The notes under the pieces: model-generated
Seen by the model: the letters and a program-made list of their open reading frames with translations, nothing else
Database searches by the model: none
What the model was told of the DNA's origin: nothing
Position numbers and translations under genes: made by a program
Assembly (NCBI RefSeq): GCF_018336915.1
Contig: NZ_CP064923.1
Coordinates: 4,656,822 to 4,680,821 of the forward strand
Length of the DNA stretch: 24,000 nt
Direction of reading: 5' to 3'
Source of the DNA: Acaryochloris marina S15
GTDB lineage: Bacteria > Cyanobacteriota > Cyanobacteriia > Thermosynechococcales > Thermosynechococcaceae
Shown: positions 3,013 to 21,991 of the stretch, piece by piece
How the letters are laid out: every line of letters begins with the position of its first letter
How positions within the stretch are numbered: the stretch's first letter is position 1

Positions 3013-3240
3013 AGTAATTTCGTAATATCCACACCCTAGTTTGATCATTTATGACCCAATTGTTGGAAAGATAAATCTACAATGGATCAAAGGAAAAAGC
3101 TGTTTTGGTCAAAAATAGGATTTTTCGTTTACGAAAGTTCCTCATCGATTCAGTGAGAATCCTTATGTAATCACCAATTCAGCCGATCTATCGTGCTAAA
3201 ATTGGGTTTACCAGCAAGCAGCAGGTTGTGGGAAAACGCC

Positions 3241-5712
3241 ATGTTTGAACGCTTTACAGAAAAAGCCATTAAAGTCATCATGCTGGCTCAAGAGGAAGCC
3301 CGCCGCTTGGGGCACAATTTTGTCGGCACAGAGCAAATTCTTTTGGGCCTCATTGGAGAAGGAACAGGCGTGGCTGCCAAAGTTTTGAAATCCATGGGTG
3401 TCAATCTTAAAGATGCTCGCGTTGAAGTAGAAAAAATTATCGGTCGCGGTTCTGGGTTTGTTGCGGTAGAGATTCCCTTTACCCCCAGAGCAAAGCGCGT
3501 TCTCGAGTTGTCCTTGGAAGAGGCCCGTCAATTGGGTCATAACTACATTGGCACTGAGCACCTGCTTTTAGGACTCATCCGTGAGGGTGAAGGGGTCGCC
3601 GCCCGTGTCCTGGAAAATCTTGGAGTTGACCTGGCTAAGGTTCGCACCCAAGTCATCCGCATGTTGGGTGAAACAGCAGAAGTCTCTGCTGGCGGTGGAC
3701 AAGGACGAACCAAAACGCCAACCCTAGACGAATTTGGGGCCAATCTAACTAACCTAGCGACTGAAGGCAAGCTCGATCCGGTCGTCGGTCGTCAAAAAGA
3801 AATTGAGCGCGTCATTCAGATTCTCGGCCGTCGGACCAAAAACAACCCGGTCCTGATTGGTGAACCAGGTGTGGGTAAAACTGCGATCGCAGAAGGTCTC
3901 GCCCAGCGCATCGCCAATGGAGATATTCCCGACATCCTGGAAGAGAAGCGCGTGGTTACCTTGGATATTGGTCTGCTGGTTGCCGGCACCAAATATCGAG
4001 GTGAGTTTGAAGAGCGCCTCAAGAAAATCATGGATGAGATTCGCCAAGCCTCCAACGTTATTTTGGTGATTGACGAAGTTCATACCCTCATCGGTGCGGG
4101 AGCTGCTGAAGGGGCCATTGATGCCGCTAACATCCTCAAGCCTGCGTTGGCTCGGGGTGAACTACAGTGCATTGGTGCCACCACCTTAGATGAATATCGT
4201 AAGCATATTGAGCGGGATGCAGCCCTGGAACGTCGTTTCCAGCCTGTCATGGTGGGTGAGCCTTCTGTTGAAGAAACCATCGAAATTCTGTATGGCCTGC
4301 GCGAACGCTATGAGCAGCACCATAAGCTCAGCATTTTAGATGAGTCTTTGGAAGCAGCTGCTAAGCTCTCTGATCGCTATATCTCTGATCGCTATCTCCC
4401 GGACAAGGCCATCGACTTGATTGATGAAGCTGGATCCAGAGTGCGGTTGATTAACTCGCAACTGCCGCCTGCCGCCAAGGAATTAGACAAGGAACTTCGC
4501 AAGGTCCTCAAAGATAAGGACGATGCAGTTCGGTCTCAAGACTTCGATAAAGCGGGTGAACTGCGGGATCGCGAGATGGAGATTAAGTCCGAAATCAAAG
4601 CCATTGCTCAGAACAAAAAAAATTCTAGTGATGAAAAGACAGACGATTCTCCCAAAGTAACGGAAGAAGATATCGCCCATATCGTGGCCTCCTGGACTGG
4701 GGTTCCCGTCAGTAAGCTGACGGAATCTGAGTCTGAGAAGCTGATGCATATGGAAGATACCTTGCACCAGCGCTTGATTGGTCAGGATGAAGCCGTACGC
4801 GCTATCTCTCGGGCGATTCGGCGGGCTCGTGTGGGTTTGAAGAATCCCAATCGTCCCATTGCTAGCTTCATTTTCTCTGGTCCGACCGGGGTGGGCAAGA
4901 CAGAGCTAACTAAGGCTCTAGCAACCTACTTCTTTGGGGCGGAAGAAGCCATGATTCGCTTGGATATGTCTGAGTACATGGAGCGTCATACGGTTTCCAA
5001 GTTGATTGGTTCACCTCCTGGCTATGTTGGCTATAACGAAGGTGGACAGCTCACTGAGGCTGTTCGACGACGTCCTTACACCGTGGTCCTCTTCGACGAA
5101 ATTGAAAAGGCCCACCCTGATGTCTTCAATATGCTGCTGCAGATTTTGGAAGATGGTCGCTTGACCGATGCCAAAGGACGGACGGTGGACTTCAAGAACA
5201 CCTTGCTGATCATGACTTCGAACATCGGGTCGAAGGTGATTGAGAAGGGTGGCGGTGGACTTGGCTTTGAATTCGCCGAGGATGAAGCGGATTCCCAATA
5301 CAATCGGATTCGCTCCTTGGTTAACGAAGAGCTGAAGGGCTACTTCCGACCTGAGTTCTTGAACCGACTAGACGAAATCATTGTCTTCCGTCAGCTCAAC
5401 AAGGCTGAAGTTAAAGAAATTTCTGAGCTCTTACTGAAGGAAGTCTTCGTCCGCTTAGAAGAAAAGAACATCACCTTGGAAATCACGGAGCGCTTTAAGG
5501 AGCGTTTGGTGGAAGAGGGCTACAACCCCAGTTATGGGGCACGTCCTTTACGTCGGGCCATTATGCGCTTGCTGGAAGACACCTTGGCCGAAGAGATTCT
5601 CTCGGGTCGGGTGAAGGAAGGCGATACTGCCATCGTTGATGTCGACGAAAATCAGCAAGTCAAGATTGCCCCGGCTGAAAAACGGGAACTGCTGCCTCAA
5701 GCCGCAGAATAA
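3241..5712 (+). CDS. clpC: ATP-dependent Clp protease ATP-binding subunit ClpC (class I AAA+ chaperone)
   Basis: Canonical N-terminus [12 protein letters not shown] with a duplicated Clp_N repeat. Two Walker A motifs ([16 protein letters not shown]) and Walker B motifs ([16 protein letters not shown]). UVR-like linker [15 protein letters not shown]. The ORF-track start at GTG 3193 adds 16 non-conserved residues, so ATG 3241 is preferred. Confidence 0.97.
3883..3890. repeat. HIP1 palindrome GCGATCGC
   Basis: Exact octamer read in the sequence. Confidence 0.95.
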
Positions 5713-5735
5713 TCAACGACCTGCTCATTGCTGAA

Positions 5736-5769
5736 AAAGGGAAATCCGAAAGGGTTTCCCTTTCTTGTT
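5736..5769 (+). terminator. Rho-independent terminator downstream of clpC
   Basis: Stem AAAGGGAAATCC (5736-5747), loop GAAA, stem GGGTTTCCCTTT (5752-5763) with one G-U pair, then a T-rich tail TTTCTTGTT. Confidence 0.75.
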
Positions 5770-5797
5770 ACTACCTCTATAACGCCCAGGACGATCT

Positions 5798-6730
5798 ATG
5801 ACTGCAGAGACCCCTGTCCACAACCACGATCACCACGACCATGATTCCTGTACTCACAGTCACGGCGTTATCGATCCCAGTTTGGCGAGTTCTGAACGGG
5901 GCTTGTGGGCCGTCAAATGGTCTACGGCGGGACTGCTCATCACGGTTTTACTCCAAGTGGGTGCGGTTTATCTTTCTGGCAGTGTGGCCCTCTTGGCTGA
6001 CTTACTCCACAACGTCGGCGATATTATTAGTGCTTTACCCTTGGGCATTGCCTTTTGGATGGGACGATTGGCCCCTAGCCGTCGATTCCAGTATGGCTAT
6101 GGTCGAGTTGAAGATTTAGCTGGCGTCATGATCATTCTGATTATTGCGGCTAGCGCCGTAGCTACGGGATATGAATCGATTCAGCGATTTATCCATCCTC
6201 AACCTTTGGAGCACTTGGGAGCCGTTGCGATCGCAGCCGGTATCGGTTTCATCGGCAATGAATCCATTGCTCTATTTCGCATCCGAGTCGGCAAGGAAAT
6301 TGGTAGTGCAGCATTAGTCGCAGATGGATATCATGCCCGCACTGATGGGCTTGTCAGCTTAGCAGTGGTCATCAGTGCCATAGGGTTATGGCTGGGCTAC
6401 CCTTGGGCTGATCCAGTGGTGGGGTTAGGGATTACTTTCGCTTTACTGCATATTGTTTGGGATTCTGGCCAGACCGTTTTGACGCGGTTACTAGATGGCA
6501 TTGAGCCTGGAACGACAGAGCAATTACAGCTGGCCCTTGCCGAATATGACTATACAAATTTAAAGGCCCGATGGATGGGACATCAGCTTTATGCTCAGGT
6601 TTGTCTGGCAGTAGAGCCTGAGATGAGTGTTGGAGACGGGGATGCGATCGCAAACCAGCTTCGTACTCACCTCCAACAAGAAATTCCTTATCTATCAGAC
6701 ATTTGTATAGAGATGCAGAAAAAATCCTAA
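5798..6730 (+). CDS. Cation diffusion facilitator (CDF) family divalent-metal efflux transporter
   Basis: His-rich N-terminus HNHDHHDHDSCTHSHG, six hydrophobic segments, CDF signature contexts LLADLLHNVGD and ADGYHARTD, and a C-terminal cytoplasmic domain. Confidence 0.85.
   Translation: MTAETPVHNHDHHDHDSCTHSHGVIDPSLASSERGLWAVKWSTAGLLITVLLQVGAVYLSGSVALLADLLHNVGDIISALPLGIAFWMGRLAPSRRFQYGYGRVEDLAGVMIILIIAASAVATGYESIQRFIHPQPLEHLGAVAIAAGIGFIGNESIALFRIRVGKEIGSAALVADGYHARTDGLVSLAVVISAIGLWLGYPWADPVVGLGITFALLHIVWDSGQTVLTRLLDGIEPGTTEQLQLALAEYDYTNLKARWMGHQLYAQVCLAVEPEMSVGDGDAIANQLRTHLQQEIPYLSDICIEMQKKS
6227..6234. repeat. HIP1 palindrome GCGATCGC
   Basis: Exact octamer read in the sequence. Confidence 0.95.
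6644..6651. repeat. HIP1 palindrome GCGATCGC
   Basis: Exact octamer read in the sequence. Confidence 0.95.
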
Positions 6731-6921
6731 CTCTTGAGATGCAGACTCTACTACAACACAAAATCTAACCAAACTATCTTGAATTGCCACATCCATTGAC
6801 TCTAGAAGCCATCAACCGTCTGATACTTCATTTTCCGTAACCTTCAGGCACAAGAATTCAGTCTATCTAGTCAGATGTTGTACAGTGATCTGCAAAATCT
6901 GAATTCCTAGGAGTTGAGCAT

Positions 6922-7356
6922 ATGAATCTTGACCTGGCAATGACGATGGTATGGCTGTGTTTAGGGTTGAGTTTGGGGTGGTTAGGGTTACTTCTAGCCC
7001 TCAGCACAGCCAATACTCTGCAAAAGATTCAGCCCAAACAATCCAAAAAGAAACAGTCCTCGCCCTTTAAGTTAAAACCTTTCTGGCAAGGGTGGTCAGA
7101 TCAGATTCAGCTTCCAGTCTCGGACCCAACAGCCAGCAAATTGTTGGGGAAGCTCATTCCAGGCGAACAGACTATCCCTGCAGCATCCAGCCCTCTTTCA
7201 CTTAATCATCCCCCTTTGGCCTGTGAGTTGGAAATCAGATCCCTCTCAGTCAGTCCTAGCTGTTGTTTACTCCATACCAAGCAAGGCTCTCCACTGCATG
7301 GCGGGGCGATTTCGACTCGGTTAACTCGGTTACGACGGATGGGAGTCTTGTTATAA
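6922..7356 (+). CDS. Hypothetical small membrane protein (doubtful, especially the C-terminal half)
   Basis: AGGAG lies 7 nt upstream of ATG 6922 and the N-terminus has a TM segment (VWLCLGLSLGWLGLLLAL). The C-terminal half is Ser/Leu/Arg/Cys-rich, looks non-protein-like, and has no recognisable domain. Confidence 0.35.
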   Translation: MNLDLAMTMVWLCLGLSLGWLGLLLALSTANTLQKIQPKQSKKKQSSPFKLKPFWQGWSDQIQLPVSDPTASKLLGKLIPGEQTIPAASSPLSLNHPPLACELEIRSLSVSPSCCLLHTKQGSPLHGGAISTRLTRLRRMGVLL

Positions 7357-7440
7357 AAGTCATCAATTGGGAGGATTTGACATAATTTGTAATAATTTGT
7401 TAGGGTGATGAACGGTAAGCCCCATAAAGAGTAAGTAATT

Positions 7441-7776
7441 ATGCTCAAGAAATTAATTGTTCCCTTGACCTTTGCAGCATCAGTGTTTTTTCAGTCTGCT
7501 GCCTTGGCTCAAACGGCAACTTACTACAGTGATTACTACCAGGGCCGCCAAACTGCATCTGGCGAAATCTTCGATACATGGGGCAATACTGCAGCTCACC
7601 CTAGCCTACCCTTCGGCACTTGGGTCCAGGTGACTAATCTCAATAATGGGGCTTCAGTCAGTGTTCGCATCAACGATCGATGCAACTGCGGGATTGACCT
7701 CAGCAAAGCTGCTGCTGGACAGATTGGTCTTCTGCAATCAGGTGTTGCACCCGTATCCATCCAAATTCTCCGGTAA
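7441..7776 (+). CDS. Secreted RlpA-like double-psi beta-barrel (DPBB) domain protein
   Basis: Signal peptide ending SAALA/QT. DPBB/RlpA motifs are YYxxxxxGRQTASGExF, AAHPSLPFGTWVQVTNLNNGASVSVRINDR and DLSKAAAGQIG. Confidence 0.85.
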   Translation: MLKKLIVPLTFAASVFFQSAALAQTATYYSDYYQGRQTASGEIFDTWGNTAAHPSLPFGTWVQVTNLNNGASVSVRINDRCNCGIDLSKAAAGQIGLLQSGVAPVSIQILR

Positions 7777-7848
7777 GTGACTGTCTCCAACTGTTGGATT
7801 GCAATAGATTGATCAGAATTTGCTCTGAGTTGAAATCTTGATATTTCC

Positions 7849-7884
7849 AGAAGCCTCCTAATTGAGTTAGGGGGCTTCTTTGAT
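7849..7884 (+). terminator. Hairpin terminator after the RlpA-like gene
   Basis: 13-bp stem AGAAGCCTCCTAA (7849-7861) / TTAGGGGGCTTCT (7867-7879) with one G-U pair and a 5-nt loop. The T tail is short (TCTTT), so function is not certain. Confidence 0.5.
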
Positions 7885-7943
7885 CTCTGCCCTCAAGTAC
7901 TCAGTGCGGGTTCAGGGAAACTTAAAACATAAGAATATCTCGA

Positions 7944-8549
7944 TCAACTATTCTGCTGAAGCTTTTGAAAAATGCGCAGAAGTAGGGGAACCCCGATCAG
8001 CGCAGACGCGATCAACGCCAATAAAATTTTTGCCAGACTCGCCGTTAAAATCCCTTGATAGAGATACCAGAGGATGCCCATCAACACGATGGCTCTGAGG
8101 ATCAGACTTTGGGTTGAATAAGCGATACTGCCTTGTTGTGTAGTCAGCGGCAGGACAGATTGAGTTTCCCAAGCCAGATTTTTATTCAAACCGAATTGGT
8201 AAGAGTCTCCTGCCAACGTAGAAATCTTGAGTACATATCCCCCTGTTAGGCTCAGCAATACTGCTTCACTCACTGTGTCGAGGAGAATCTCCCAATCTCC
8301 ACAAAATAGATAGGATTCTGTCAGAATCAGCATTCCGCGCCGGGACGTTACCCATTCAAGTTCATACTGCACCGGAGAATCGGCCTTCATCTTTCTGGCT
8401 TTCGTCACACCAGAAGCGAGTATCTGAACATTAGGGTACTGCTTTCGAAACTTCTGCAAGCGAAATGGAACGAGGTAAAACACATAACACGTCGCACGGC
8501 TAAATCCAATCAATACTTGTTCCAGCCAGTCAGTAATATGGGAAAGCAT
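7944..8549 (-). CDS. Hypothetical membrane protein (soluble N-terminal domain plus two C-terminal TM helices)
   Basis: 201-aa ORF starting at ATG with C-terminal hydrophobic segments (LILRAIVLMGILWYLY, ILLALIASALIGVPLLL). I recognise no family motif. Confidence 0.55.
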   Translation of the reverse strand: MLSHITDWLEQVLIGFSRATCYVFYLVPFRLQKFRKQYPNVQILASGVTKARKMKADSPVQYELEWVTSRRGMLILTESYLFCGDWEILLDTVSEAVLLSLTGGYVLKISTLAGDSYQFGLNKNLAWETQSVLPLTTQQGSIAYSTQSLILRAIVLMGILWYLYQGILTASLAKILLALIASALIGVPLLLRIFQKLQQNS

Positions 8550-8695
8550 GGGAAAGTTGATTGCTGAAGTTTTATCAATCTAGATTTAGGAATAATACTG
8601 CCATCTTGATACAATTCCCTATCCTTAAGTATTTCACCACCTCTGAGTGAACTAGATATCGCCCAGTATTGATTGCTCTATTGTCCGATCTATTT

Positions 8696-9532
8696 ATGAC
8701 CGCCACTCAACTCCATCCCTCCAAACAACTGAAGAAACTACAAGCTCGCCTCAGAGGGCTAGTGGGCAAGGCCGTTCGTGACTACAACATGATCGAAGCG
8801 GGCGATCGGATTATGGTGTGTTTGTCTGGTGGCAAGGACTCCTACACCCTGCTGGATATCTTGCTGCACCTACAGCGGGCTGCCCCCATTGATTTTGAGA
8901 TCCTGGCCGTCAACCTCGATCAAAAGCAACCCAATTTTCCAGAACAGATTTTACCGACTTATCTAGACCAACTCCAAGTCCCCTACCGCATCGTCGAAGA
9001 AGATACCTACAGTACGGTCAAACGAGTCATCCCAGAGGGCAAGACCATGTGTGGTCTTTGTTCTCGATTACGGAGAGGGATTCTATATCGAGTCGCTCAA
9101 GAAGAACAAGCCACCAAAATTGCCCTCGGCCACCATCGAGAAGACATTATCGAAACCCTTTTTCTCAATCTGTTCCATGCCGGCAAGCTAGAAGCCATGC
9201 CCCCCAAACTGTTGAGCGACAATCGCCAACATATGGTGATTCGTCCCCTCGCTTACTGCCCAGAAGCGGATATCCAGCGGTATGCCGATTTGCGTCAATT
9301 CCCGATTATTCCCTGCACCCTCTGTGGATCGCAGGAAACGCTACAGCGGGTCCAAGTCAAGCAAATGCTGCAAACTTGGGAACAAGAAACACCGGGGCGA
9401 TTAGAAACGATCTTTCGCAGTCTACAAAATGTCGAATTATCGCAACTGGCCGATCCACAGCTTTTTGATTTTGCTCACTTGGCTATTGCCGCAACTCCTG
9501 CTGTAGATTCACCGGATAAGTCATGCCCCTAG
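8696..9532 (+). CDS. ttcA: tRNA 2-thiocytidine(32) synthetase TtcA (PP-loop ATPase)
   Basis: PP-loop motif CLSGGKDS, the TtcA Cys motifs [10 protein letters not shown] and CTLCGS, and [14 protein letters not shown]. The ORF-track start TTG 8669 is possible, but ATG 8696 is preferred. Confidence 0.88.
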
Positions 9533-11037
9533 CGAATATCAAGGGTCCCATCAATTCCTTCTAGGCTCAACATATCCAGACGTTCATCTGCTTCGCCGCG
9601 CTTTTCATAAGCACCCACCTGTAAGACGGATCGGCCCTTATATCTAGATCGAAACGCATCGGGAACTAGGGTTTTGATTCTCTTGTAATCCGCTGAACTT
9701 GCAGTCTTAACGATCACCCGATAGCGAAGTCTGGAGCGCTCATCCAAGGGGGGAGGAGGTGGATTTCCAGTGCCTGAAATTGCAGCTAACTGCTGGGCAC
9801 GCCCTGCATCTCGACTGGCCGTATAAATATCCGAAGCAGGGCTATAGCGTCCCAAGGGCACATTTTCTTGAGGTACAGGGAGAACACCGCCAGAGTTAAG
9901 CGTCGATCCTGGAACCGACAAGTTAGGCAACCCTTTAGGAATGGGAGCGCTAGGAATAGGGGCAATGGCTGTGCGGCGAGGGGAAGGGACTGGAATGGGA
10001 ATAGGACTAGAAAAGAATCCCTTGGATAACGGTGATTTGGCAGCCAACTTCACTAGTTTTCGCCGTTTGCTGGCTGAAGGTTTGGAGGAGGGTCTGTATC
10101 GAGTCGATTGTGGAGCTGTTAAAGGTGGAGGAGGTGGGCTTTCACCGGCTAACTCGGGTAATTCTGGATCGGTTTCCGGGCGAGGGAGGGCGATGGCACC
10201 TGGGGTTTTGCGGGCATGGGATGGGGGAATAGAAGGAGCAGACCCCAATGGCTGTCCCCTATTAGGCACTGGGATTTCAATGGGAGATGTAATGAGATTC
10301 GTTAATTCATCCCGCTCCTGGGACCGATCTAATTTACCTTTGGCTTTTGGAGGAGCTGCGGGTGGAGTCGGTGGCTGTGGTGACTCCAAAGGGGGGAGAC
10401 TATCCACTCCATCTTCAGGTGGGGCGGGCGGGGCAGACTCTAAGGGGGGAACAGCATCAGAGGGGGCTTCAGCGATAGTATCTGCACTGGGAACTTGGTC
10501 ATGGGTGAAATAAATATGGCCGAGGGTTTTGCCGTTGTAACTCCGCTTTGAGAACCGCCAACCGGGTTCTAGCTGAATTTTCAAGAAGCCATCCGTAAGA
10601 CTTTGGGTTTCACCAATTTTCAGCTTGGGAGCACCCGGATTGCGGGAGGGATAACCCATCAGCACTAAGTTTCCATTTTGCTTCACCACGGAGAGACGAT
10701 AGTCCATGGCATAGTCTTGCCCCCCTTGGCGAATGGAATACCCATTACTATCCGTACTCCGTCCACAAATACCGGTGAAGTCAAACTGTAGGAGCAGAGG
10801 GTCAATCACCCCAGGCTGATCCACCTTTTCTTCCCAGCAGGCCTGGGTCGATGAAATTTGCTCCAGAATAATCAGGTTATACTGCTTCCCTTCTGCAAAC
10901 GGAACTGCGATCGCAATAAATTTACTTTGGTCTACTTCTTCTTGACCAAAGGTATAAGCCTGGGCTGAATGGGGAATCAACAGGCTCAGAAATAGGCTGG
11001 AGATCGCAACCGTAACCCGACTCAAATGATATTTCAT
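9529..11037 (-). CDS. Secreted modular protein: N-terminal conserved cyanobacterial domain (DUF3747-like), long Pro-rich linker, C-terminal SPOR-like domain
   Basis: Signal peptide ending HSAQA/YT. An N-terminal globular region of about 180 aa contains conserved Cys residues. About 240 aa are Pro/Ser/Ala-rich low complexity. The C-terminus [24 protein letters not shown]...[17 protein letters not shown] resembles the SPOR beta-alpha-beta-beta repeat. The DUF3747 assignment is from memory only. Confidence 0.75.
10907..10914. repeat. HIP1 palindrome GCGATCGC
   Basis: Exact octamer read in the sequence. Confidence 0.95.
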
Positions 11038-11556
11038 GACTCCTATCCGCTTCCCAAAAAGTGAGTGACTTGCTACTAAAACTGGCTAATTTCTTTAGGA
11101 ATGTCCATGACAAACCTGTGAGCTGAACGTAGATTTCTTCGGCTGCAAAATCACATTCACCCCAGAATCAAAATAGCCGGTGGTGCCAAATTTTATCCTA
11201 TTTTTTACTCAAAACTAAAAGTGAAATATAAGTTAACAAATACAATTATTCTTAGGATCTAAGAGTTAAAACTTCCTGAGTATAAATAGCTATTTAAGTT
11301 CTAAAGTAGAGAACCAAAATTTAGACAAAGACGCATCGGTTACTTTGCCCAAAATGTATTATTTAACACCATCAAGTTTGATATTTCCTGCCTGAGACTC
11401 TAGGCATCAGACCAGTGGAAATACGAGATTAGATTCTAATTTTATTTTCAAAAAATAATATATCTGTACACAAATTTCTCACAGATTGCCTCAAACCGAT
11501 GACGGATTATCTAGACGCCCGTTCAATCCCGTCTCAAAAATGTCCATCCTAACCCT
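11038..11556. promoter_or_regulatory. AT-rich divergent intergenic region (presumed promoters for both flanking genes)
   Basis: The flanking genes diverge across a 519-bp gap. The 60-nt block 11221-11280 has 16 G+C (27%), and by eye the flanking genes are clearly less AT-rich. No ORF of 60 aa or more. Promoter positions were not determined. Confidence 0.4.
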
Positions 11557-12033
11557 ATGAATAGAAAACGCATGGCTCAACCCATCGCCTGGGGCTATCT
11601 CTTCGGTCTACTGATGGCCTACATGGCTGTGGGGTGGGTTCTAGCAGCCTATGCAGCCCCCCTGCTGATGTGGGTTTGGACCGTGGTGCTGATGGCTTAT
11701 GTCGCCTGGGCAGATAAGGGTGCGATCTCAGGTGCAATGCTATGGGTTGTTTCCGTCGTGTGGATTGCTGCATATACCACAGCAACCCCCCTGCTTATGA
11801 ACTGGAAAGGGCCAACTTGGGCAATCTCATTAGTAGGGGTGTGGATATTCGCAATTTGGGTTGTTCTATTACTGGCGTTTGCTCAGCCAGTGATTCAGGC
11901 TTTGGGCTGGTCTCGAAAAAAGACTTTTTATCGTCTGCTGATGCTGACAGGCGCAGGATTGATCATCGGTCGTTTGCTGTACCTAGGATCAATGCCGACT
12001 CCCCCATCGATGGCCCTACTCTACATTACTTAG
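11557..12033 (+). CDS. Hypothetical Trp-rich integral membrane protein (4 predicted TM helices)
   Basis: 158-aa ORF starting at ATG with four long hydrophobic segments. No recognised family. Confidence 0.6.
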   Translation: MNRKRMAQPIAWGYLFGLLMAYMAVGWVLAAYAAPLLMWVWTVVLMAYVAWADKGAISGAMLWVVSVVWIAAYTTATPLLMNWKGPTWAISLVGVWIFAIWVVLLLAFAQPVIQALGWSRKKTFYRLLMLTGAGLIIGRLLYLGSMPTPPSMALLYIT

Positions 12034-12050
12034 TACAGGAGATACCTCGG

Positions 12051-12614
12051 TTGCCTCAGTCATCATTTTCAAAAGATAGAAATCACTCCAACCCGAAAGA
12101 TCAGAATTTCGTATCCTCTACCCCTACGGATTCTCTGTCACAGGCGATCTCTGGGCCTGACTGTATCAAACAAATCGATCCCACTCTTCTCTCCAATTTG
12201 AATACAGCACAAGTACTGGAAATCAAGCAATTTATCAGTCAAACCATTGCCCATGAAGTGACGCAAAAAACAGCTAATTTAAGCATCAATCATAATCAGT
12301 TAGAAAGCCAGGATTTTACCCGCAAAAAGCGCAAATCAAAACTCATTGATATTCGCTTTGTCGTTGACTTATTATTCTCGCGTTTCTACGTTGTATTAAT
12401 GGTGGGTAAAGACGTCCGCAAAGGTCAACGTCCTTACCCCAAATCCCGAGCAACTAAAGCAGGTAATATGATCGCTGCCTTTATGCTAATTGTGGCCATG
12501 AATCTACTGATTTCTGCCGTTTTGCTATTAGGTCTCTATTTACTCAAGTCTGCTCTAAATATTGACCTCATGCCTGGACATTTTTCAGATCAATTAGAAA
12601 TCTTAAAAAAATAA
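12051..12614 (+). CDS. Hypothetical protein with a C-terminal TM anchor; probable TTG start
   Basis: The ORF-track entry 11742-12614 overlaps the previous gene out of frame, and that N-terminal part looks non-coding. AGGAGA (12037-12042) lies 8 nt upstream of an in-frame TTG at 12051, just after the upstream stop. Protein-like C-terminal segments are IDIRFVVDLLFSRFYVVLMVGKD and the TM segment MIAAFMLIVAMNLLISAVLLLGLYLL. The exact start is uncertain. Confidence 0.5.
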   Translation: MPQSSFSKDRNHSNPKDQNFVSSTPTDSLSQAISGPDCIKQIDPTLLSNLNTAQVLEIKQFISQTIAHEVTQKTANLSINHNQLESQDFTRKKRKSKLIDIRFVVDLLFSRFYVVLMVGKDVRKGQRPYPKSRATKAGNMIAAFMLIVAMNLLISAVLLLGLYLLKSALNIDLMPGHFSDQLEILKK

Positions 12615-12693
12615 AGATATAAACTCTCTTCCACTTCATTGTGGCGCTTGTTTTAGCTCAGCTCCTTGATAGGATAGAAAAGATTTATTCTTA

Positions 12694-13743
12694 ATGTTTT
12701 TTCTAACGATGAATACAACCTCGACCCTTTATCGCATCTTGGATGCCAATCTCGATCGCGCACGAGAAGGGTTGCGGGTAATTGAAGAATGGTGTCGATT
12801 TGGTCTAGAAAATTCCCAACTGAGCGCTCAGTGCAAACAGCTCCGTCAGGACTTGGCTAGCTGGCATCACCCCCCCTTGCGGATGGCCCGAGATACCCCC
12901 AATGATCCAGGCACACAGCTTACCCACCCCCAAGAGGCAGCCCGCACTGACTTACCAACGGTTGTGCAAGCCAACCTTTGCCGGGTGCAAGAAGCCCTGC
13001 GAGTGCTGGAAGAATATAGCAAGCTTTACGATACCAACATGGCCGCAGCCTGTAAGCAGATGCGCTATCAGGTGTATACCCTAGACACTCAACTGCAACC
13101 TCGCCATCGATTGCAACAGTTACTCGATGCCCCCCTTTATTTAGTCACTTCCCCCAACAAACAGCTAGTCCCTGTCGTCGAAGCGGCATTGCAGGGAGGA
13201 TTAAAGCTGGTTCAATACCGAGAGAAACAAGCAGATGACGAGCAACGTTTGGCCATTGCCCAGACCTTATGCCAGCTATGCCATCAATATAATGCTCTGT
13301 TTATTGTTAATGATCGGATTGATATTGCTGTGGCCGTGGATGCCGATGGAGTCCACTTGGGGCAGCAGGACATGACCATGGCGGTAGCTCGTCAAATGCT
13401 CGGGCCAGATAAGTTAGTGGGGCGCTCCACGACTAACCCTCAAGAAATGGATCGGGCCATCCAAGAGCAAGCAGACTATATTGGCGTCGGGCCTATTTAT
13501 GCAACCCCCACTAAAGCAGACAAAGCGGCCGTCGGCCATGAGTACATCCACTATGCCAATCAACATGCGCCCATGCCCTATTACGCTATCGGCGGCATTG
13601 ATGAGACCAACCTAGAAGAAGTCTTGACCGCAGGTGCCCAACGAGTGGCCGTGGTGAGGGCGATTATGAATGCCCCTTCTCCGACCCAGGCTGTCCAACA
13701 GATGTTAAAACAGTTTTCGAAAACACCCACTCCCACCCCGTAG
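12694..13743 (+). CDS. thiE: Thiamine-phosphate synthase ThiE with the ~130-aa N-terminal extension (ThiD2-like domain) seen in cyanobacterial ThiE
   Basis: The C-terminal TIM-barrel shows ThiE motifs LVQYREK, FIVNDRIDIAVAVDADGVHLGQQD, GRSTTN, DYIGVGPIYATPTK and YYAIGGI. The N-terminal domain begins LYRILDANLDRAREGLRVIEEWCRF. An alternative start is ATG 12709. Confidence 0.9.
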   Translation: MFFLTMNTTSTLYRILDANLDRAREGLRVIEEWCRFGLENSQLSAQCKQLRQDLASWHHPPLRMARDTPNDPGTQLTHPQEAARTDLPTVVQANLCRVQEALRVLEEYSKLYDTNMAAACKQMRYQVYTLDTQLQPRHRLQQLLDAPLYLVTSPNKQLVPVVEAALQGGLKLVQYREKQADDEQRLAIAQTLCQLCHQYNALFIVNDRIDIAVAVDADGVHLGQQDMTMAVARQMLGPDKLVGRSTTNPQEMDRAIQEQADYIGVGPIYATPTKADKAAVGHEYIHYANQHAPMPYYAIGGIDETNLEEVLTAGAQRVAVVRAIMNAPSPTQAVQQMLKQFSKTPTPTP

Positions 13744-13885
13744 ACACAGCCTGAATATAGCCAACTTTGACCAAACCTATTCTTCAGCTCCCCCATCAAG
13801 ATTCAGGGTTGAGTTTTGATCTTGAACTTAATATATAGATAGAGACTTCACCCTATCGGATCGCTTTTGTGAATGATTCCTCTAA

Positions 13886-14095
13886 ATGAAAATGATTAAT
13901 ATCCAAGTCAATGGAGAACGACAAACCTGTTCACCCAGCATGGTATTGCCAGAATTTCTGGTACAGTTAAACCTCAATCCTCGCCTCGTGGCGGTAGAAT
14001 ACAATGGCGAAATTCTGCATCGACAGTTTTGGGAAACAACCCGCTTGCAGATGGGAGATCGTCTAGAAATCGTGACGATTGTGGGGGGCGGCTAA
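13886..14095 (+). CDS. thiS: Sulfur-carrier protein ThiS
   Basis: 69 aa with a ubiquitin-like ThiS pattern (VNGE...VAVEYNGEIL...L..GDRLEIVT.VGGG) and the terminal Gly-Gly. Confidence 0.88.
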   Translation: MKMINIQVNGERQTCSPSMVLPEFLVQLNLNPRLVAVEYNGEILHRQFWETTRLQMGDRLEIVTIVGGG

Positions 14096-14281
14096 ACCAC
14101 CCGAATCTCAACACGATTTCGAGCAACGACTCTAAGTTCGAAAGTTGTCTTGGGGCATTTCTAAACCAGCTTAGGCCTGGGTTGCGAATTTGTATCAGAA
14201 ATATTGGTCATTTGTCAATGCTTTACCCCAGCAATGTTGTTAAAATAAGTAACAGAGTTTAACAAAGGCAATCATCAGGTT

Positions 14282-15445
14282 ATGGGCCGTGTCGGTGTTC
14301 TATTACTGAATCTAGGGGGACCAGAGCAGCTAAAGGATGTACGTCCTTTTTTGTATAACCTGTTTGCTGATCCAGAAATTTTACGGCTGCCATTTGCTTG
14401 GATGCAAAAGCCTTTTGCCGGGTTTATTTCCACCCTGCGGGCCCGGACGTCTCGGGACAACTATCGGCAAATCGGTGGTGGTTCCCCATTACGACGAATC
14501 ACAGAAGCCCAAGCCCACGCGCTCCAAGATGACTTGCAGGCTAAGGGATGTGATGCTCAGGTTTATATCGGCATGCGTTACTGGCATCCTTTTACCGAAG
14601 AGGCTGTTGCCCGTATCAAACGAGATGGGATTGAAGAGCTGGTCATTCTGCCGCTCTATCCTCAGTTTTCGATCAGTACTAGCGGTTCGAGTATCCGGTT
14701 ATTGGAGAAGATCTGGTCTGAAGACCCAGAATTACAGAAGATTAAGTACACTGTCATCTCTTCGTGGCATGATCGCCCTGGCTATGTGCAGGTCATGGCT
14801 GACTTTTTGCGCCAAGAGCTGGATCAGTTTGCCAATCCTGAGCAAACCACTGTATTTTTTAGTGCCCATGGTGTCCCCCTCAGCTATGTAACTGAATCGG
14901 GTGATCCCTACCAGCAAGAGATTGAGGCCAGTACTCAGCTGATTATGGAGGCGTTAGAACGCCCCAACCCCCATATTTTGGCTTATCAAAGTCGAGTGGG
15001 GCCGATGGAGTGGTTACGCCCCTACACCACAAATGTGATTGCGCATTTGGGTCAGCAGGGGGTTAAAGATTTAGTGGTGGTGCCTATTAGCTTTATCTCA
15101 GAGCATATCGAAACGCTCCAAGAGATCGATATGGAATACCGGCATTTAGCGCTCGAATCAGGCATTGAAAATTTTCGCCGGATGCCAGCCGTCAATATAC
15201 ATCCAGACTTTATCGATACCCTCAGTGAGATGGTGCTGGAATATCTAGACAAGCCCTCTTTAAGATTCTCTCAAGTCTTCCGACCTCAGAAAAAAATTAA
15301 GCTGTATCCCCAAGAGCGTTGGGAATGGGGGATGACGACCACGGCTGAACGCTGGAATGGTCGCTTCGCGATGGTCGGCTTTATTGCCCTACTGGTTGAA
15401 CTGATCAGTGGCTATGGTCCCCTGCATTTAGCGGGGCTACTCTAG
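14282..15445 (+). CDS. hemH: Ferrochelatase with a C-terminal chlorophyll a/b-binding (CAB/LHC motif) transmembrane helix
   Basis: N-terminus [10 protein letters not shown], then [16 protein letters not shown] and [11 protein letters not shown]. The C-terminal CAB helix is [22 protein letters not shown], as in cyanobacterial and plastid type II ferrochelatases. Confidence 0.95.
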
Positions 15446-17274
15446 CTTTGCTTTTTAGACAGTTCGGCTTTCCATAATTTGTGCCAGTGATTGCGCACAG
15501 CACGATTGGCATCGTACATGGTCGAGTATCGTGATTGGATATTAAATTGGCACATCTGGGCAAAAATCTGAATTGTTGCCTGATGGAGTTCGACCATTTC
15601 TGGATCGGTCTCTGAGGCTGATGGTTGCAAAGCTTGTAAAAAGGTTTTGCCAATCACATATTGGTCTGTTTCAGGTTTAAAGGTCCCGTAGCTGATTTCT
15701 GGGGCTAAGACATCCCCTTGATCCTGAAGCAATTTTTGATATTGCGGAAATTGAACACTCAGCTTACTGAGAATACGGGGGACAACACCATAGTCAATCA
15801 GGACTAATTTTTTACCTTTTTCATTGGGCTGCAAGAAGCAATCAGGATGAGGATGACTATGCACCAAATCGGCCTGATGCAGGATTTCAATAATCGTTAA
15901 GACCTCATCCGCAAATTTGCAGGTCATGCGGGGATTTAAGGGAGCATGAGATACCAATACTTTGCTTAGCATTGTCCCTTCGATATGTTCATGAACGATA
16001 TGAAGGACTTCACTATCTTGTAAGAAGCTGAGTACCGGGAGACATTGCAGATGGGGAGCCAGCTGTTTCAAAGTCGCCATTTCGGCTAAAAACAGCTCTT
16101 GCACAGCCTGTAAAACTTCTGGGCTATTGGTGTCTAACCGAAAGGTATGAACAATTCGTAGGGGGGTATCCAGCTCTTGTAGATCTTGGGCGATGGCAGT
16201 TTGTCCGAAGGCATGCTTACTGATGACTTCAACCAACCGAAAGTGCTCATCCCAAAATGAGGGCTGAGGTGCTGCTGCGACGGTAGATTCCAACAACTGC
16301 TGTCGGGCAACTGCCGAAGCATCACGGGTTTTGAGATGACTTTGAATACGAGCCAAAGCAATAGGTAAATCAATCGGCTTCGTGATGTAATCGTTAGCTC
16401 CTAATTCTAGGGCTTCGACCACATTTTCACTGGCATCCTTGGCGGTCGCCATAATCACCGGTAGCTCTTCTTGGGAATAGGTCTGCCGAATGCGCTTCAG
16501 GGTTTCGATCCCGCCAATACCTGGCATCATAATATCCAGCAATACCAGGGTAATCTCGGTGGTGGCAATGAGTTCCAATGCGGCTTCACCACTATCTGCT
16601 AGGGCAACTTCATAGCCCTTCCGCTGTAAACGCCGACTCAACATATCCCGGTTAGCCTCGACATCATCTACGACTAAGAGTTTATGAGTCGTGGGCTCAG
16701 AAACAGGCTTTGGGGGAGGAGAGGAAGGTAGGGATGACGGAGTACTCGCAACGAGGGGAGTCCCCTCACGTCCTTCTTGATGCACCTCGGATGGAGATGT
16801 TCTAGCCGCAGCGGTGACTAACTGTTCTGAGGGTGGAGCAGCGGGGGTCACTACAGCTGCGGGTGTCGCCTGTGCCACAGATTCGACTGGGCGTGGGGAT
16901 TGTTCTGGAGTCCCTTGCAATAAGGTTTCAATTTTCTGCAGCAACCGTTTGAGATCAACGGGCTTAGTATCGTAATCATCACACCCTGCCGATAAGGCTT
17001 CTTCTCGATCACCTACCATGGCATGGGCTGTGAGGGCAATAATCGGAATAGCGGCTGTTTGTTCCCCGGCTTTGAGAGTCCTAGTCGCTTCCCAGCCATT
17101 CATCACTGGCAAACTCATATCCATCAGAATGAGATCGGGCTGCTCTGTGAGAGCCTTCGTGACGCCTTCGCCCCCATCAACTGCAATCACAACATCATAG
17201 CCCCGACGCTTTAATCGGCGTCCGAGCATATCGCGATTAAGTTCATTATCTTCAACTAATAGAATTTTCGGCAT
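15442..17274 (-). CDS. Dual receiver (REC-REC) response regulator with a C-terminal degenerate Ser/Thr protein-kinase-like (pseudokinase) domain
   Basis: REC1 covers aa 3-118 (DN...D52...T82...K104) and REC2 aa 198-312 (DD...D247...T277...K299), separated by an ~80-aa Pro/Ala/Ser linker. The domain at aa ~345-600 aligns by eye to bacterial STK subdomains but carries HSHPHPDC in place of HRDxKPxN and RIVH in place of VxxK. DYG and APE are retained. Confidence 0.85.
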
Positions 17275-17320: not shown

Positions 17321-17773
17321 TTAACTGGCCTTAGGCTTAACTAAAATGGCATCACCCTCTACTTTGACGTCATAGCTTTCTAGAGGATCAGAGGCAGGCC
17401 CTTTAACGACCGCTCCATCCGGTTTATAAGTGGAACCATGACAAGCACAAAAAATATCTTGTGAGTCTTGCTTCCAATCTACGGGGCAACCCTGATGGGT
17501 ACAAGTCGGATTGAGAGCATGGAGGGTGTCTGAGCTTTTTGAATCTCGGACAACTAGTACTTTTTGGTTCCCTTTCAAGGTCTGCAGAATGCGACCATTT
17601 TGATCTAAGTCTTGGGTCTGACCCACCTTGATAAACCCATCAGGGGTCGTTTCAGTTTTAGGAGCTGGGGTTGGGGAGGTTGAAGACTGTTGCGTACAGG
17701 CGCCAATCACAACGGAGACGACTCCTGAAATCCAACTTAAGGTCAACCATGACAGAACTTTTCGGCGGTTCAT
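17321..17773 (-). CDS. Small Rieske [2Fe-2S] protein with a twin-arginine-like signal and lipobox (PetC3-like lipoprotein)
   Basis: Rieske boxes CTHQGCPV and CACHGSTY. The N-terminus MNRRKVLSWLTLSWISGVVSVVIGAC has an RRxVL Tat-like motif and an IGAC lipobox. It lies 46 bp upstream of the REC-REC-pseudokinase gene on the same strand. Confidence 0.85.
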   Translation of the reverse strand: MNRRKVLSWLTLSWISGVVSVVIGACTQQSSTSPTPAPKTETTPDGFIKVGQTQDLDQNGRILQTLKGNQKVLVVRDSKSSDTLHALNPTCTHQGCPVDWKQDSQDIFCACHGSTYKPDGAVVKGPASDPLESYDVKVEGDAILVKPKAS

Positions 17774-18185: not shown

Positions 18186-19211
18186 TTGGGCGTGAACAGA
18201 CTGTTAAAAAAACGCCATCTAGTCTTGATTGTTTTGTTCGCGGTGGCATCGCTACTGTCATTACAATTGGCACGGATGACTGAGCAACCTGTGATTGCCA
18301 AACTGGGGCCACCCGTTACGGCTGCTGGTGATGAGCCAATTGAACCGATCCCGATGCAGGTTTCCTTAAATATGGAAAAAGTGGTTTTGGGTAAGCAGCT
18401 GTTCCATGATCCGAAACTTTCTAAGACGAACAATATTTCTTGTGCCAGCTGCCATGACTTATCGATGGGTGGCACCGATCGCCTACCGGTCTCCATCGGT
18501 ATTAACGGTGAAAAGGGGACGATTAATTCCCCCACGGTCTTCAATAACAGCTTTCACTTTAAGCAATTTTGGGATGGCCGAGCCTCAAGCTTGGAAGAGC
18601 AAATCGAGGGGCCTGTCCATGCGGGCAATGAGATGGGATCGAGTTGGCCTGAGATTATTGGCAAGCTGAAGCAGTCGCCTGAATATGTGAATGCTTTTAA
18701 CGAGCTCTATGACAGCGATATTTCTGCTGACCATATCAAGGATGCGATCGCAACTTTCGAACGCTCCCTCTACACCCCCAACTCTAAATTTGACCAATTC
18801 CTTCGGGGCAATGCTGACGCCTTAAGCAAAGACGAGAAAGAAGGCTATCGACGCTTTAAAGGCTATGGCTGTGTCGCCTGTCACCAGGGCGTGCTGCTCG
18901 GCGGCAATATGTATCAGAAATTTGGGGTTTTTGGTGACTACATCAAAGATCGCGGGGACGAAACCAAAGCGGATCTGGGACGCTACAACGTCACCGGCAA
19001 AGAAGACGACCGCTACATGTTTAAGGTACCAAGCTTAAGAAATATCGCCTTAACGGCTCCCTATTTTCATGATGGGTCCTCTAAAACCCTAGATGAAGCC
19101 GTCAAAATCATGGTCAAATATCAACTCGGTCGCGAGGCAGATCAAGAAGACGTTGACCTAATTATCAAGTTCTTAAATACCTTAAACGGTGAAATTAAAG
19201 AGGTCGCCTAA
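18186..19211 (+). CDS. Secreted di-haem cytochrome c peroxidase / MauG family protein
   Basis: Two haem c motifs, CASCH (aa 86-90) and CVACH (aa 229-233). Family motifs are FWDGRA, VPSLRNIALTAPYFHDGS and MVKYQLG, with an N-terminal signal/anchor LVLIVLFAVASLLSLQLA. GTG 18192 sits 9 nt after AGGAGG and may be the true start rather than TTG 18186. Confidence 0.9.
   Translation: MGVNRLLKKRHLVLIVLFAVASLLSLQLARMTEQPVIAKLGPPVTAAGDEPIEPIPMQVSLNMEKVVLGKQLFHDPKLSKTNNISCASCHDLSMGGTDRLPVSIGINGEKGTINSPTVFNNSFHFKQFWDGRASSLEEQIEGPVHAGNEMGSSWPEIIGKLKQSPEYVNAFNELYDSDISADHIKDAIATFERSLYTPNSKFDQFLRGNADALSKDEKEGYRRFKGYGCVACHQGVLLGGNMYQKFGVFGDYIKDRGDETKADLGRYNVTGKEDDRYMFKVPSLRNIALTAPYFHDGSSKTLDEAVKIMVKYQLGREADQEDVDLIIKFLNTLNGEIKEVA
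18744..18751. repeat. HIP1 palindrome GCGATCGC
   Basis: Exact octamer read in the sequence. Confidence 0.95.
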
Positions 19212-21991
19212 TGCAGAAACAAAAACTTCTAGGCCTCCTCGGGGTCTCCGGTGCCCTGGTCTTGTTTGGCGGCCTGATTGCCAAAAGCTTATCCGTTGAC
19301 AACCAACAGCATCAGCAATATCGCACCTTAATGGCTCAACAGTTGGACAAAGATGCCACTGTTAACCAAAGTGTCCTTAAAGCCAGATATGCGTTATTGA
19401 CCTCCTACGATCCCCTCGTCCGGGCTATGTCCGAACAGCTCGATTTACAGGAGGATCTCAAGCAAGTTCCTGGGTTTATTGGCAATCAACAGACCCTTTT
19501 ATCTCAGCTCAGCGAGAACAACCAAGTCTTTACTCAGAAAGAAGAGTTAGTTGAATCTTTCAAATCCAAGAACGCTATCCTCAAAAACTCCTTAACCTAC
19601 TTACCAGAGCTAGTAAAAGAGGTTCGCACGGGCTCTGCAAAAGGAATATCCGGGGATGAGGCGATTCAGCTGGAAAGCCTATTAGATAATGTCTTACTGT
19701 ACAGCTTGTCGTCAGATGAAGATCTAGTTTCCCAGATCGAAACCCAAATCGCTCAATTAAAGGGTAAAAAATCCAAGGGCATTCAATTGGCCCTTGCCCA
19801 TACCCAGATGATTCTGGAGTACAAGCCCCAGGTCGATGCCTTAACCCGCGATATTCTGAAGCTGCCCACGGCCAAAGCCATCAGCACTTTAGAAACGGCT
19901 TATATCAATCAATATGATGGGGCAACTCAAACAGCCGACCTATTTCGACTACTCAGCTTCGGCTGCTTGTTAGTTCTCGTCAGTGGCGGTGCCTATTTGG
20001 TAGTGCGGCAACAGCGTCGTTCTAGTGAGCGGGTATCCGGTATTCTCAGCAGTTTGACCGATGCCTTTGTGGCTCTGAATCCCCAGTGGCAAATCACGTA
20101 TATCAACGATAAAGCCGCTGAGATTCTGCAAGAAGATCCCGTACAGTTGCTCAACCAAGATTTCTGGCAAAGTTTTCCTGACCTCCTGGGTGCCGATCAT
20201 TTAACTGAGTATCGACAAGCCCTGAAAGAGAAAACCAAGACCTCCTTCGAGGTGTTTTATCCCCCCAGCAAAATGTGGTTGGAGATTCGCGTCTATCCCA
20301 GCGTGGACGGACTATCCTTGTTCTTCCAAGATGTGACGATGCGCAAGGAGGCTGAAGACAGCCTGAAGCAAATGAACCAAGAGCTAGAGACCCGGGTCAA
20401 GGCTCGTACATCTCAGTTAGCATCCAGTATGGAAGCCGCCGAAGAAGCGCGGGAGAAAGCGGAAGAAGCCAATAAGAGTAAGAGTGAATTCTTGGCCAAT
20501 ATGAGCCATGAACTCCGAACTCCCCTCAACGCCATTATTGGTTACAGCGAAATGCTGGAAGAGGATGCCGAGGATATGGGACAAGATGACTTTGTCCCCG
20601 ATTTACAGAAAATTTCTGGGTCGGCAAAGCATCTTCTAGAACTGATCAACTCTGTTCTAGACCTCTCGAAGGTCGAAGCGGGACGCATGGAACTCTATTT
20701 AGAGTCCTTTGAAATCGCCCCCATGGTCAGAACCATTGCTGCCACCTTACAGCCTATTGCCGAGAAGCAAAGCAACATGGTTTCCCTGCATTGTCCTGAG
20801 AATATTGGGACGCTGTATGCTGACCAAACCAAAGTTCGTCAGAGTTTGTACAACTTACTCAGTAATGCCTGTAAGTTCACACAATCCGGCGAAGTGAGCC
20901 TCACCGTATCGGAAGATGCTGGGGAAGAGATTGTCTTTAGCATTAGAGATACTGGCATTGGCATGACCCCAGAACAGCTGGAAAAAGTGTTCAAAGCCTT
21001 TACCCAAGCAGATGCGTCCACTACCCGCAAATATGGGGGAACCGGACTGGGCCTCACTATCACCAAGCAGTTCATTGAGATGATGGGCGGGCATATTTCG
21101 GTAACCAGCCAATATGGCTACGGCACCGAGTTTACGATCCATATTCCTCGCCAAGTGGAATCAGAAACTGCAGCATCCATTCCAACTCCATCTGCGCCCA
21201 TCGAACTGAGTAAGATTTCTTTACCCAAAACGGCGAAAGGACAGCCGGGTGGGACAGTACTCGTGATTGATGATGACGAGTATGCCCGTGACATCATGCA
21301 GCGGTTTTTAACAGATGCTGGTTATGATGCGGTGGTATCGCCTTCGGGGATAGAGGGGCTACAGCTGGCTGAAGATCTCATGCCTGACATGATTATTTTG
21401 GATGTCTTGATGCCAGAACTCGATGGCTGGTCAGTCCTTCAGAATCTCAAGGGCAGTGCCAAATTAGCAGATATCCCCGTTATTATGATGACGATGGTGG
21501 ATGCCGAAAAAGTCGGTTTCTCCCTGGGTGCGACTGACTTCCTGACCAAACCCTTACAGCGAGATCGGCTACTGGAACTGTTGGATAAATATGTCACAAC
21601 AGCAGATCGCAACTGGATGTTAGTGATTGAGGATGACCTGCCTTCCCAGGAAATGCTAGGTCGCATACTCGAACGGGAAGATTGGCCCTACAAAACAGCG
21701 GGCAATGGCAAACAAGCCCTCGAAGTCCTCGGTGATCATGGCGTCCCAGATTTAATTTTCTTAGATCTGATGATGCCAGAGATGGATGGCTTTGAGTTCC
21801 TGAAGGTACTGCGGCAAAATCCAGACTGGCAGAATGTCCCTGTGATTGTGGTTTCGGCGAAAGATCTCACAGCCAGTGAGCGTCTAGAGCTGGGAGATGC
21901 GGTCCAAAGTATTCACCAAAAAGGACAGCTCGATCGCGAGGAATTGCTAGAAGAGGTTCAAGACTTTATCGAAATTGCCGCTGGTAATTAG
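19211..21991 (+). CDS. Hybrid sensor histidine kinase: TM, ~215-aa all-helical extracytoplasmic sensor (DAHL-like), TM, PAS, HisKA, HATPase_c, REC, REC
   Basis: TM1 is aa 6-25 and TM2 aa 245-265. PAS is aa ~275-380. H-box [11 protein letters not shown] (H433), N-box LLSNACKF, G1 IRDTGIGM, G2 GGTGLGL. REC D731 and REC D852. The ATG overlaps the upstream TAA (TAATG at 19209-19213). The DAHL assignment rests only on remembered motif similarity ([21 protein letters not shown]). Confidence 0.92.

Follow-up and report, generated by a model that had tools for sequence, protein, structure and literature searches.

Architecture of the regulator gene

The stretch analysed here, referred to below as the window, comprises 24,000 nucleotides of the genome of Acaryochloris marina S15 (contig NZ_CP064923.1, positions 4,656,822 to 4,680,821). 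On its minus strand it carries a gene for a response regulator of 610 amino acids (aa), which consists of two receiver (REC) domains followed by a kinase-like domain at the C-terminus. Both receivers are recognised by Pfam (Response_reg, PF00072, E 9e-56 for the protein), and they are separated by a disordered linker whose length differs between orthologues (Table 1). A functional receiver is marked by an acidic pair, an acceptor Asp, switch residues (Thr/Ser and Tyr/Phe) and a Lys, and both domains possess all of them. REC1 retains the full set with E8-D9, the acceptor D52, T82, Y101 and K104. REC2 retains D203-D204, the acceptor D247, T277, Y296 and K299, all of which are invariant in orthologues. 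At its 3' end the gene is convergent with hemH on the plus strand, and the two open reading frames (ORFs) overlap by 4 nucleotides at 15442-15445. Two orthologues, P0009 (441 aa) and P0010 (462 aa), are recorded without REC1; as the matching genome loci L021 and L023 (G003, G001) encode full-length proteins of 607-614 aa, these short forms are truncated gene calls.

Table 1. Positions of the regulator, its domains and motifs, and the adjacent module genes in the window (P0116 is the Gloeomargarita lithophora protein used for motif alignment; pLDDT, predicted local distance difference test).
Feature	Position	Strand	Evidence or equivalent
Whole gene, response regulator with two receivers and a predicted pseudokinase domain, 610 aa	15442..17274	minus	ORF list, translation; Pfam: two Response_reg and Pkinase
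Receiver domain 1 (REC1), aa 1-122, hybrid-kinase-receiver-like	16909..17274	minus	Pfam; model pLDDT >90
Linker, aa 123-195, rich in Pro, Ser, Thr and Ala, disordered	16690..16908	minus	pLDDT <50 for aa 124-192
Receiver domain 2 (REC2), aa 196-318	16321..16689	minus	Pfam; acceptor and other functional residues invariant
Hanks-type kinase fold without catalytic residues (predicted pseudokinase), aa 339-600	15475..16260	minus	Pkinase score, PDB phmmer, AlphaFold2 (AF2) model, Foldseek, dN/dS
Gly-loop remnant S352-K-H-A-F-G357, third glycine alone retained	16204..16221	minus	P0116: GQGGFG
His376 at the beta3 (VAIK) Lys position, invariant in orthologues	16147..16149	minus	P0116: VVK Lys
His428 at the gatekeeper position, invariant in orthologues	15991..15993	minus	P0116: Gln
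Former catalytic loop H472-S-H474-P-H476-P-D-C479 (HRDxKxxN)	15838..15861	minus	P0116: HRDVKPDN
D494-Y-G at the DFG position, metal-binding Asp retained	15787..15795	minus	P0116: DFG
Small Rieske [2Fe-2S] protein, RRKVL motif, IGAC lipobox	17321..17773	minus	Pfam Rieske 8.9e-16
Di-haem cytochrome c peroxidase (CCP/MauG family)	18186..19211	plus	Pfam CCP_MauG 5.5e-59
Hybrid histidine kinase: transmembrane segment, DAHL periplasmic sensor, transmembrane segment, PAS, HisKA, HATPase, REC, REC	19211..21991	plus	Pfam

The C-terminal domain adopts a protein-kinase fold

The C-terminal domain has a genuine protein-kinase fold, since Pfam, matches to PDB sequences, a confident AlphaFold model and Foldseek agree. 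The Pkinase profile (PF00069) scores 34.7 bits against a curated cut-off of 31.7, with residues 393-553 aligned on profile positions 43-195. The best matches among PDB sequences (phmmer) are to the Stk1/PknB kinase domain of Staphylococcus aureus (4eqm, 9ymt; E 1e-7), where the catalytic-loop region of the regulator is aligned with ivHrDiKPqNil. The full-length AF2 model, for which a 75-sequence family alignment served as input, has a mean pLDDT of 84.4 and reaches about 90 over the kinase-like domain; an input of seven orthologues gave a pLDDT of 54.6. When the model was searched with Foldseek, the C-terminal domain superposed on Stk1, PknB, PknA and PknS with template modelling scores of 0.6-0.68, normalised to the target (0.65-0.68 for Stk1/PknB), and the N-terminal half matched PleD (REC-REC-GGDEF) best, with an E-value of 1e-17. 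A profile built from the orthologues retrieves 17,293 kinases at E <= 0.001.

The initial annotation, made from the letters of the window, had placed a kinase fold at 15475-16242 and a catalytic-loop remnant at 15835-15864, behind two phospho-receiver domains. Translation of the minus strand bears out both intervals, which correspond to residues 345-600 of the 610-aa ORF at 15442-17274 and to ten residues spanning HSHPHPDC. The fold itself, the two receivers upstream, and the profile and structure checks that the annotation had proposed all came out as it expected.

Catalytic motifs are lost and fold residues are kept

The equivalence of motifs was read from an alignment to P0116 of Gloeomargarita lithophora, the closest intact relative. 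This protein, annotated 'serine/threonine protein kinase', shares the architecture of the regulator, has very similar receivers and belongs to the same cyanobacterial kinase subfamily. It differs in that it keeps GxGxxG, VVK, HRDVKPDN and DFG, whereas the Acaryochloris regulator has no phosphotransfer residues.

A competent Ser/Thr kinase needs a beta3 Lys and a GxGxxG loop for ATP binding, and the regulator has His376 and SKHAFG at these places. It likewise needs HRDxKxxN, with its base Asp, its Lys and its Mg-binding Asn. Here the loop reads HSHPHPDC, so that the HRD Asp is replaced by His474, the catalytic-loop Lys by His476 and the Asn by Cys479. The DFG aspartate is present as the invariant D494-Y-G. 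Residues that hold the fold together are retained, namely alphaC Glu398, APE Glu526, Asp537 and Arg582. Since a genuine kinase fold is combined with the loss of its catalytic residues, the domain is, judged by its sequence, a pseudokinase with the classical motif pattern. The substitutions listed in the initial annotation (VAIK Lys, HRD Asp, loop Lys and Asn lost; DFG read as DYG) are those found in the alignment to P0116.

Conservation and selection in Acaryochloris

Orthologues with 55-96% identity in the kinase-like domain are confined to Acaryochloris. Six of the eight other Acaryochloris genomes have one, and the two genomes that lack it are 87% complete. Across 14 such orthologues H376, H428, H472, H476, C479, D494-Y-G and A-P-E are invariant, while the loop positions between the invariant His and Cys residues vary (S, T or G at 473; D, G or C at 478).

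The ratio of nonsynonymous to synonymous substitution rates (dN/dS), calculated for close pairs by the Nei-Gojobori method, is about 0.08 over the 262 codons of the pseudokinase domain. For comparison, it is 0.02 in REC1, 0.04-0.06 in REC2 and 0.3-0.4 in the linker. With a value fourfold below that of the linker of the same gene, the pseudokinase domain is under strong purifying selection and is not decaying.

The regulator belongs to a degenerate clade of REC-kinase proteins

The wider family was gathered by searching 1.8 billion representative proteins with the orthologue profile, together with a second search that started from P0116. Among the proteins retrieved, 72 contain both a REC and a kinase-like domain and make up a cyanobacterial REC-(REC)-kinase family. 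The view of the initial annotation that such an architecture is unusual as a response-regulator output therefore does not hold as worded: the regulator is not a one-off. REC-kinase fusions are already present in databases under the annotation 'response regulator', and the response-regulator classification published by Galperin in 2006 reportedly lists rare REC-kinase fusions.

Many members of this family are catalytically intact (HRDIKPxN, VVK, DFG), including those of Gloeomargarita and Thermostichales. When the kinase domains are placed in a maximum-likelihood tree, the 33 degenerate sequences all group in one clade, with a Shimodaira-Hasegawa-like approximate likelihood ratio test (SH-aLRT) value of 99; its sister is the intact group of Gloeomargarita (support 96). 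A tree of the receivers only, which has no columns in common with the trait, gives the same split between intact and degenerate proteins with a support of 70. The regulator lies inside the degenerate clade in both trees; both were obtained from quick-mode runs with SH-aLRT as support.

Within the degenerate clade, each lineage is degenerate in its own manner at the catalytic motifs. The loops observed are HQNIHPSS with DSG, HGEIHAHH with DLG and HQHLQPLC with DLG, and further HS(N/D)I(Q/H)PSN, HTDIQPYN, HAGLRDDS and HTDVQPCH. The HSHPHPDC cluster is restricted to Acaryochloris. Conservation of this motif among homologues, raised in the initial annotation, thus holds in part: it is mostly kept in the 14 orthologues of the genus, one of which has Asp at 474, and it is replaced by other residues in the remaining lineages. 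The DFG Asp is at least 90% conserved in the 75-sequence family alignment. Structural fold residues are kept across the clade, and the domain is of full length in every lineage examined. In the proteins of G167 and G097 (loci L033 and L034) the kinase-like domain, with HAGLRDDA and DSG, falls below Pfam detection.

The Gly loop and the catalytic-loop Lys are missing from every degenerate member. Because these losses are shared, catalysis probably disappeared a single time, at the root of the module-linked clade. The stem branch of Acaryochloris has a length of 1.1 substitutions per site in the tree of kinase domains versus 0.21 in that of the receivers. The burst of change on this stem was confined to the kinase-like domain; the His/Cys cluster arose during it, and purifying selection resumed afterwards.

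Two further proteins were considered and rejected as relatives. One, of 534 aa, is the top paralogue within the genome itself; the other, of 521 aa, is the top match within the taxonomic family. Both are ordinary intact membrane kinases.

A conserved module with a DAHL hybrid kinase

The gene for the Rieske lipoprotein lies on the same strand as the regulator gene and 46 bp ahead of it, and the two are probably co-transcribed. Divergent from the Rieske gene lie the genes for the di-haem cytochrome c peroxidase and the hybrid histidine kinase, where the stop codon of the former overlaps the start codon of the latter. All four genes are kept in five other Acaryochloris loci, and they also occur together in members that are 34-44% identical and come from metagenomes and other cyanobacterial families. 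In these distant members the order is mostly collinear, running peroxidase, kinase, Rieske, regulator (P0252, P0214, G044, G148, G135).

Counted over the loci of 13 lineages, the DAHL hybrid kinase adjoins the regulator in 11, with a twelfth uncertain; the peroxidase is present in eight and a Rieske gene is adjacent in eight. Several loci depart from the common layout. That of P0067 (L028, 8001-14726) is convergent, and the sensor is split there into separate genes for a DAHL-PAS protein (380 aa) and a HisKA-HATPase-REC protein (545 aa); in front of its peroxidase gene, this locus has a gene for a cytochrome b of the Ni_hydr_CYTB family. The P0231 locus has no Rieske gene, and the P0241 locus lies on a contig that is cut upstream. 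Only the regulator and the kinase make up the loci of G167, G097 and G199, two of which have the kinase in duplicate. In L033 (G167; 8426-16835) and L034 (G097; 4990-13362) a tandem-duplicated DAHL kinase stands ahead of the REC-REC regulator, and the fetched regions of both contain no peroxidase or Rieske gene.

In a sample of 200 cyanobacterial genomes, a clear orthologue of the DAHL kinase was found in seven; six of these carry the regulator alongside, and the seventh has a different downstream output. At L036 (G098; 2928-12211), the peroxidase and DAHL-kinase genes are followed by genes for a single-domain receiver and a HisKA-REC-PAS protein, a gene order from which it follows that the same sensor pair can feed a different output. 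The kinase beside the intact P0116 is a different one, whose sensor is Tll0287-like, and the neighbourhood contains neither a peroxidase nor a Rieske gene.

No histidine phosphotransfer (HPt) domain is present in the module, and nine occur elsewhere in the genome. The same genome encodes a second DAHL hybrid kinase at 3645438-3648590, outside the window, in a frame of 1077 aa whose sensor half is 57% identical to that of the module kinase. Neither a peroxidase nor a Rieske protein nor a pseudokinase regulator is encoded beside it, and other CCP and Rieske paralogues are found elsewhere. We rejected hemH as a family-wide functional link; it is adjacent in all Acaryochloris loci and not in the other module lineages. 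Elsewhere in the window, at 12694-13743, a single protein of 349 aa joins a thiamine-phosphate synthase (TMP-TENI) to a ThiD2-family domain at its N-terminus.

Proposed function of the regulator

We consider it reasonably probable that the protein serves the DAHL-kinase module as its terminal response regulator and that its output is a non-catalytic kinase fold. The core of the module would be the membrane hybrid histidine kinase with its periplasmic DAHL sensor; in Acaryochloris and most other lineages, a translationally coupled peroxidase gene stands ahead of the kinase gene, with the small Rieske gene alongside. The module probably responds to peroxide or redox state in the periplasm, because the peroxidase is translationally coupled to the kinase and a Rieske protein belongs to the module. 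We infer that the neighbouring DAHL hybrid kinase is the phosphodonor of the regulator; the receivers may be phosphorylated by this kinase directly or through an unlinked HPt protein. Their phosphorylation would change the conformation or the oligomeric state of the pseudokinase domain, which itself most likely phosphorylates nothing. Its output appears to be protein-protein interaction, and the domain would act by binding a partner, for instance one of the about 36 Hanks kinases of the genome. As to its origin, we postulate that the output domain descended from an active REC-REC-Ser/Thr kinase of the kind that persists in Gloeomargarita. The Gly loop and the catalytic-loop Lys would have been lost once at the base of the clade, and every phosphotransfer residue would have been lost in Acaryochloris.

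Several points weigh against this proposal. Adjacency alone cannot reveal the specificity of phosphotransfer, and with four receivers and no HPt domain in the module the route of the phosphoryl group is not evident. The peroxidase and the Rieske gene are each absent from the loci of some lineages. The single degenerate clade is weakly supported in the receiver-only tree. One orthologue (P0243, locus L014) has Asp at 474 in a loop that reads HTDAHPGC, so that the HRD Asp is kept. Some pseudokinases have proved to be atypical enzymes.

Alternative roles of the former active site

The initial annotation suggested a metal- or redox-responsive site. The former Mg-ATP site may now accommodate a metal (Zn, Fe or Cu), a haem group or a ligand with redox activity, which would make the domain a second, cytoplasmic sensor that joins a metal or redox signal to the phosphorelay input. 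This idea is tentative and on the unlikely side; it extends the proposed role as a non-catalytic output and does not exclude it. The candidate ligands are His376, His428, His474, His476 and Cys479, aided by Asp494 and Glu398. The ATP phosphates and Mg of active kinases are surrounded by the residues that correspond to K72, D166, K168, N171, D184 and the gatekeeper of protein kinase A (PKA), and the substituted residues of the regulator map to these positions. The mostly invariant His and Cys residues of the loop, set against the variable positions 473 and 478, argue for such a site, as do the DFG Asp retained in about 90% of the family, the origin of the cluster on a long kinase-domain stem branch with purifying selection afterwards, and the haem and iron-sulfur proteins encoded by the neighbouring genes. 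At four formerly catalytic positions of the degenerate clade, His or Cys occupies 16 of 60 cells versus a background of 4.2%, in at least six lineages; the sequences are kin, so this enrichment overstates their independence. Against a metal site speaks the restriction of the cluster to one genus. Other lineages of the same module carry quite different residues, and the module therefore works without the His/Cys cluster. The single orthologue with Asp at 474 counts in the same direction, and to our knowledge no pseudokinase has a metal site of this kind. The most specific form of the idea is that the ATP/Mg pocket was rebuilt in Acaryochloris as a candidate His4-Cys-Asp site for a transition metal, haem or thiol redox chemistry, whereby one regulator would integrate a periplasmic phosphorelay with cytoplasmic metal or redox signals; we regard this as doubtful.

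It is improbable that the domain is still an enzyme which works by a non-canonical mechanism, as an atypical kinase or in another nucleotide-dependent reaction. SelO, which performs AMPylation, and SidJ, which performs glutamylation, are precedents of such reactions on a kinase fold. The strong selection that acts across the domain, its loop residues included, would be in keeping with an enzyme, as would the retention of the DFG Asp, the alphaC Glu, the APE Glu and the structural Asp and Arg, and the HRD Asp kept in one orthologue. Reviews also record pseudokinases that were later found to be active (PMC12599244). However, four of the five canonical nucleotide and metal ligands are replaced, two glycines of the Gly loop are gone and no compensating lysine is evident in that loop. 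Moreover, the residues differ between lineages of the same module, where a conserved mechanism would predict the opposite.

A kinase-like remnant without function that the receivers carry along, with a His/Cys pattern due to neutral drift, is very improbable: the great variation of active-site residues between lineages and the lack of Pfam detection in G167 and G097 would suit a remnant, but the dN/dS values led us to reject it, and the confident model, the clade-wide retention of fold residues and the full length of the domain speak against it as well.

Comparison with known systems

An output domain behind two receivers recalls PleD of Caulobacter, which likewise has tandem receivers before an output that does not bind DNA. 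The output of PleD is a diguanylate cyclase, whereas that of the Acaryochloris regulator is a predicted pseudokinase. PleD is activated via phosphorylation-driven dimerisation, and its second receiver is not known to carry an acceptor Asp; the Acaryochloris regulator, in contrast, has an acceptor Asp in both receivers. By analogy, the likeness suggests that the regulator may operate by a mechanism comparable to the dimerisation of PleD.

Kinase folds that lack catalysis and act by partner binding or conformational switching are represented by MviN and EssB/YukC in bacteria and by HER3, STRAD and JAK JH2 in eukaryotes (PMC12599244). We propose a mechanism of this type for the regulator. Unlike the regulator, these are not governed by fused phospho-receivers, and they are analogues that are homologous in fold only. 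Surveys of bacterial Ser/Thr pseudokinases from 2025 describe the families ActPs1-3, DLHK, GLW, CP1 and DYD (PMC12599244; bioRxiv 10.1101/2025.01.12.632604). These families are, like the regulator, Hanks-type folds with degraded VAIK, HRD or DFG motifs (PMC12599244), and neither survey mentions fusions to receivers or response regulators. CP1 is partly cyanobacterial (cyanobacterial/proteobacterial), and its defining feature is a physical connection with a COG3899 ATPase domain (PMC12599244). We rejected membership in CP1, as the regulator consists of REC-REC-kinase only and has no such ATPase domain.

A pairing of peroxidase and sensor comparable to that of the module occurs in Campylobacter jejuni, where the chemoreceptor gene docB (DocB/Tlp10) is directly preceded by docA, which encodes a cytochrome c peroxidase (PMC3156733). 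The likeness consists of a gene for a periplasmic peroxidase directly upstream of a gene for a membrane sensor; the difference is that the output of DocA/DocB is a chemoreceptor and not a histidine kinase with a pseudokinase regulator. Because docA does not contribute to peroxide resistance (PMC3156733), a sensory role of DocA would fit. Literature searches on receiver-fused pseudokinases, the DAHL domain, the module and Acaryochloris signalling returned nothing relevant.

Significance

Pseudokinases and response regulators are each well known, and bacterial pseudokinases are only now being catalogued. The degenerate clade, in which two receivers precede a predicted pseudokinase, is apparently undescribed. 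It presents a case in which one ancient loss of catalysis, if our reading is correct, coincides with recruitment into a specific DAHL-kinase sensory module. The intact sister group and the degenerate clade together would offer a natural system for following how a kinase fold turns into an allosteric two-component output. The module may further help in asking why periplasmic cytochrome c peroxidases are paired with sensors in the membrane, and the His/Cys-lined pocket of the Acaryochloris proteins is a directly testable candidate for a new ligand site in the kinase fold.

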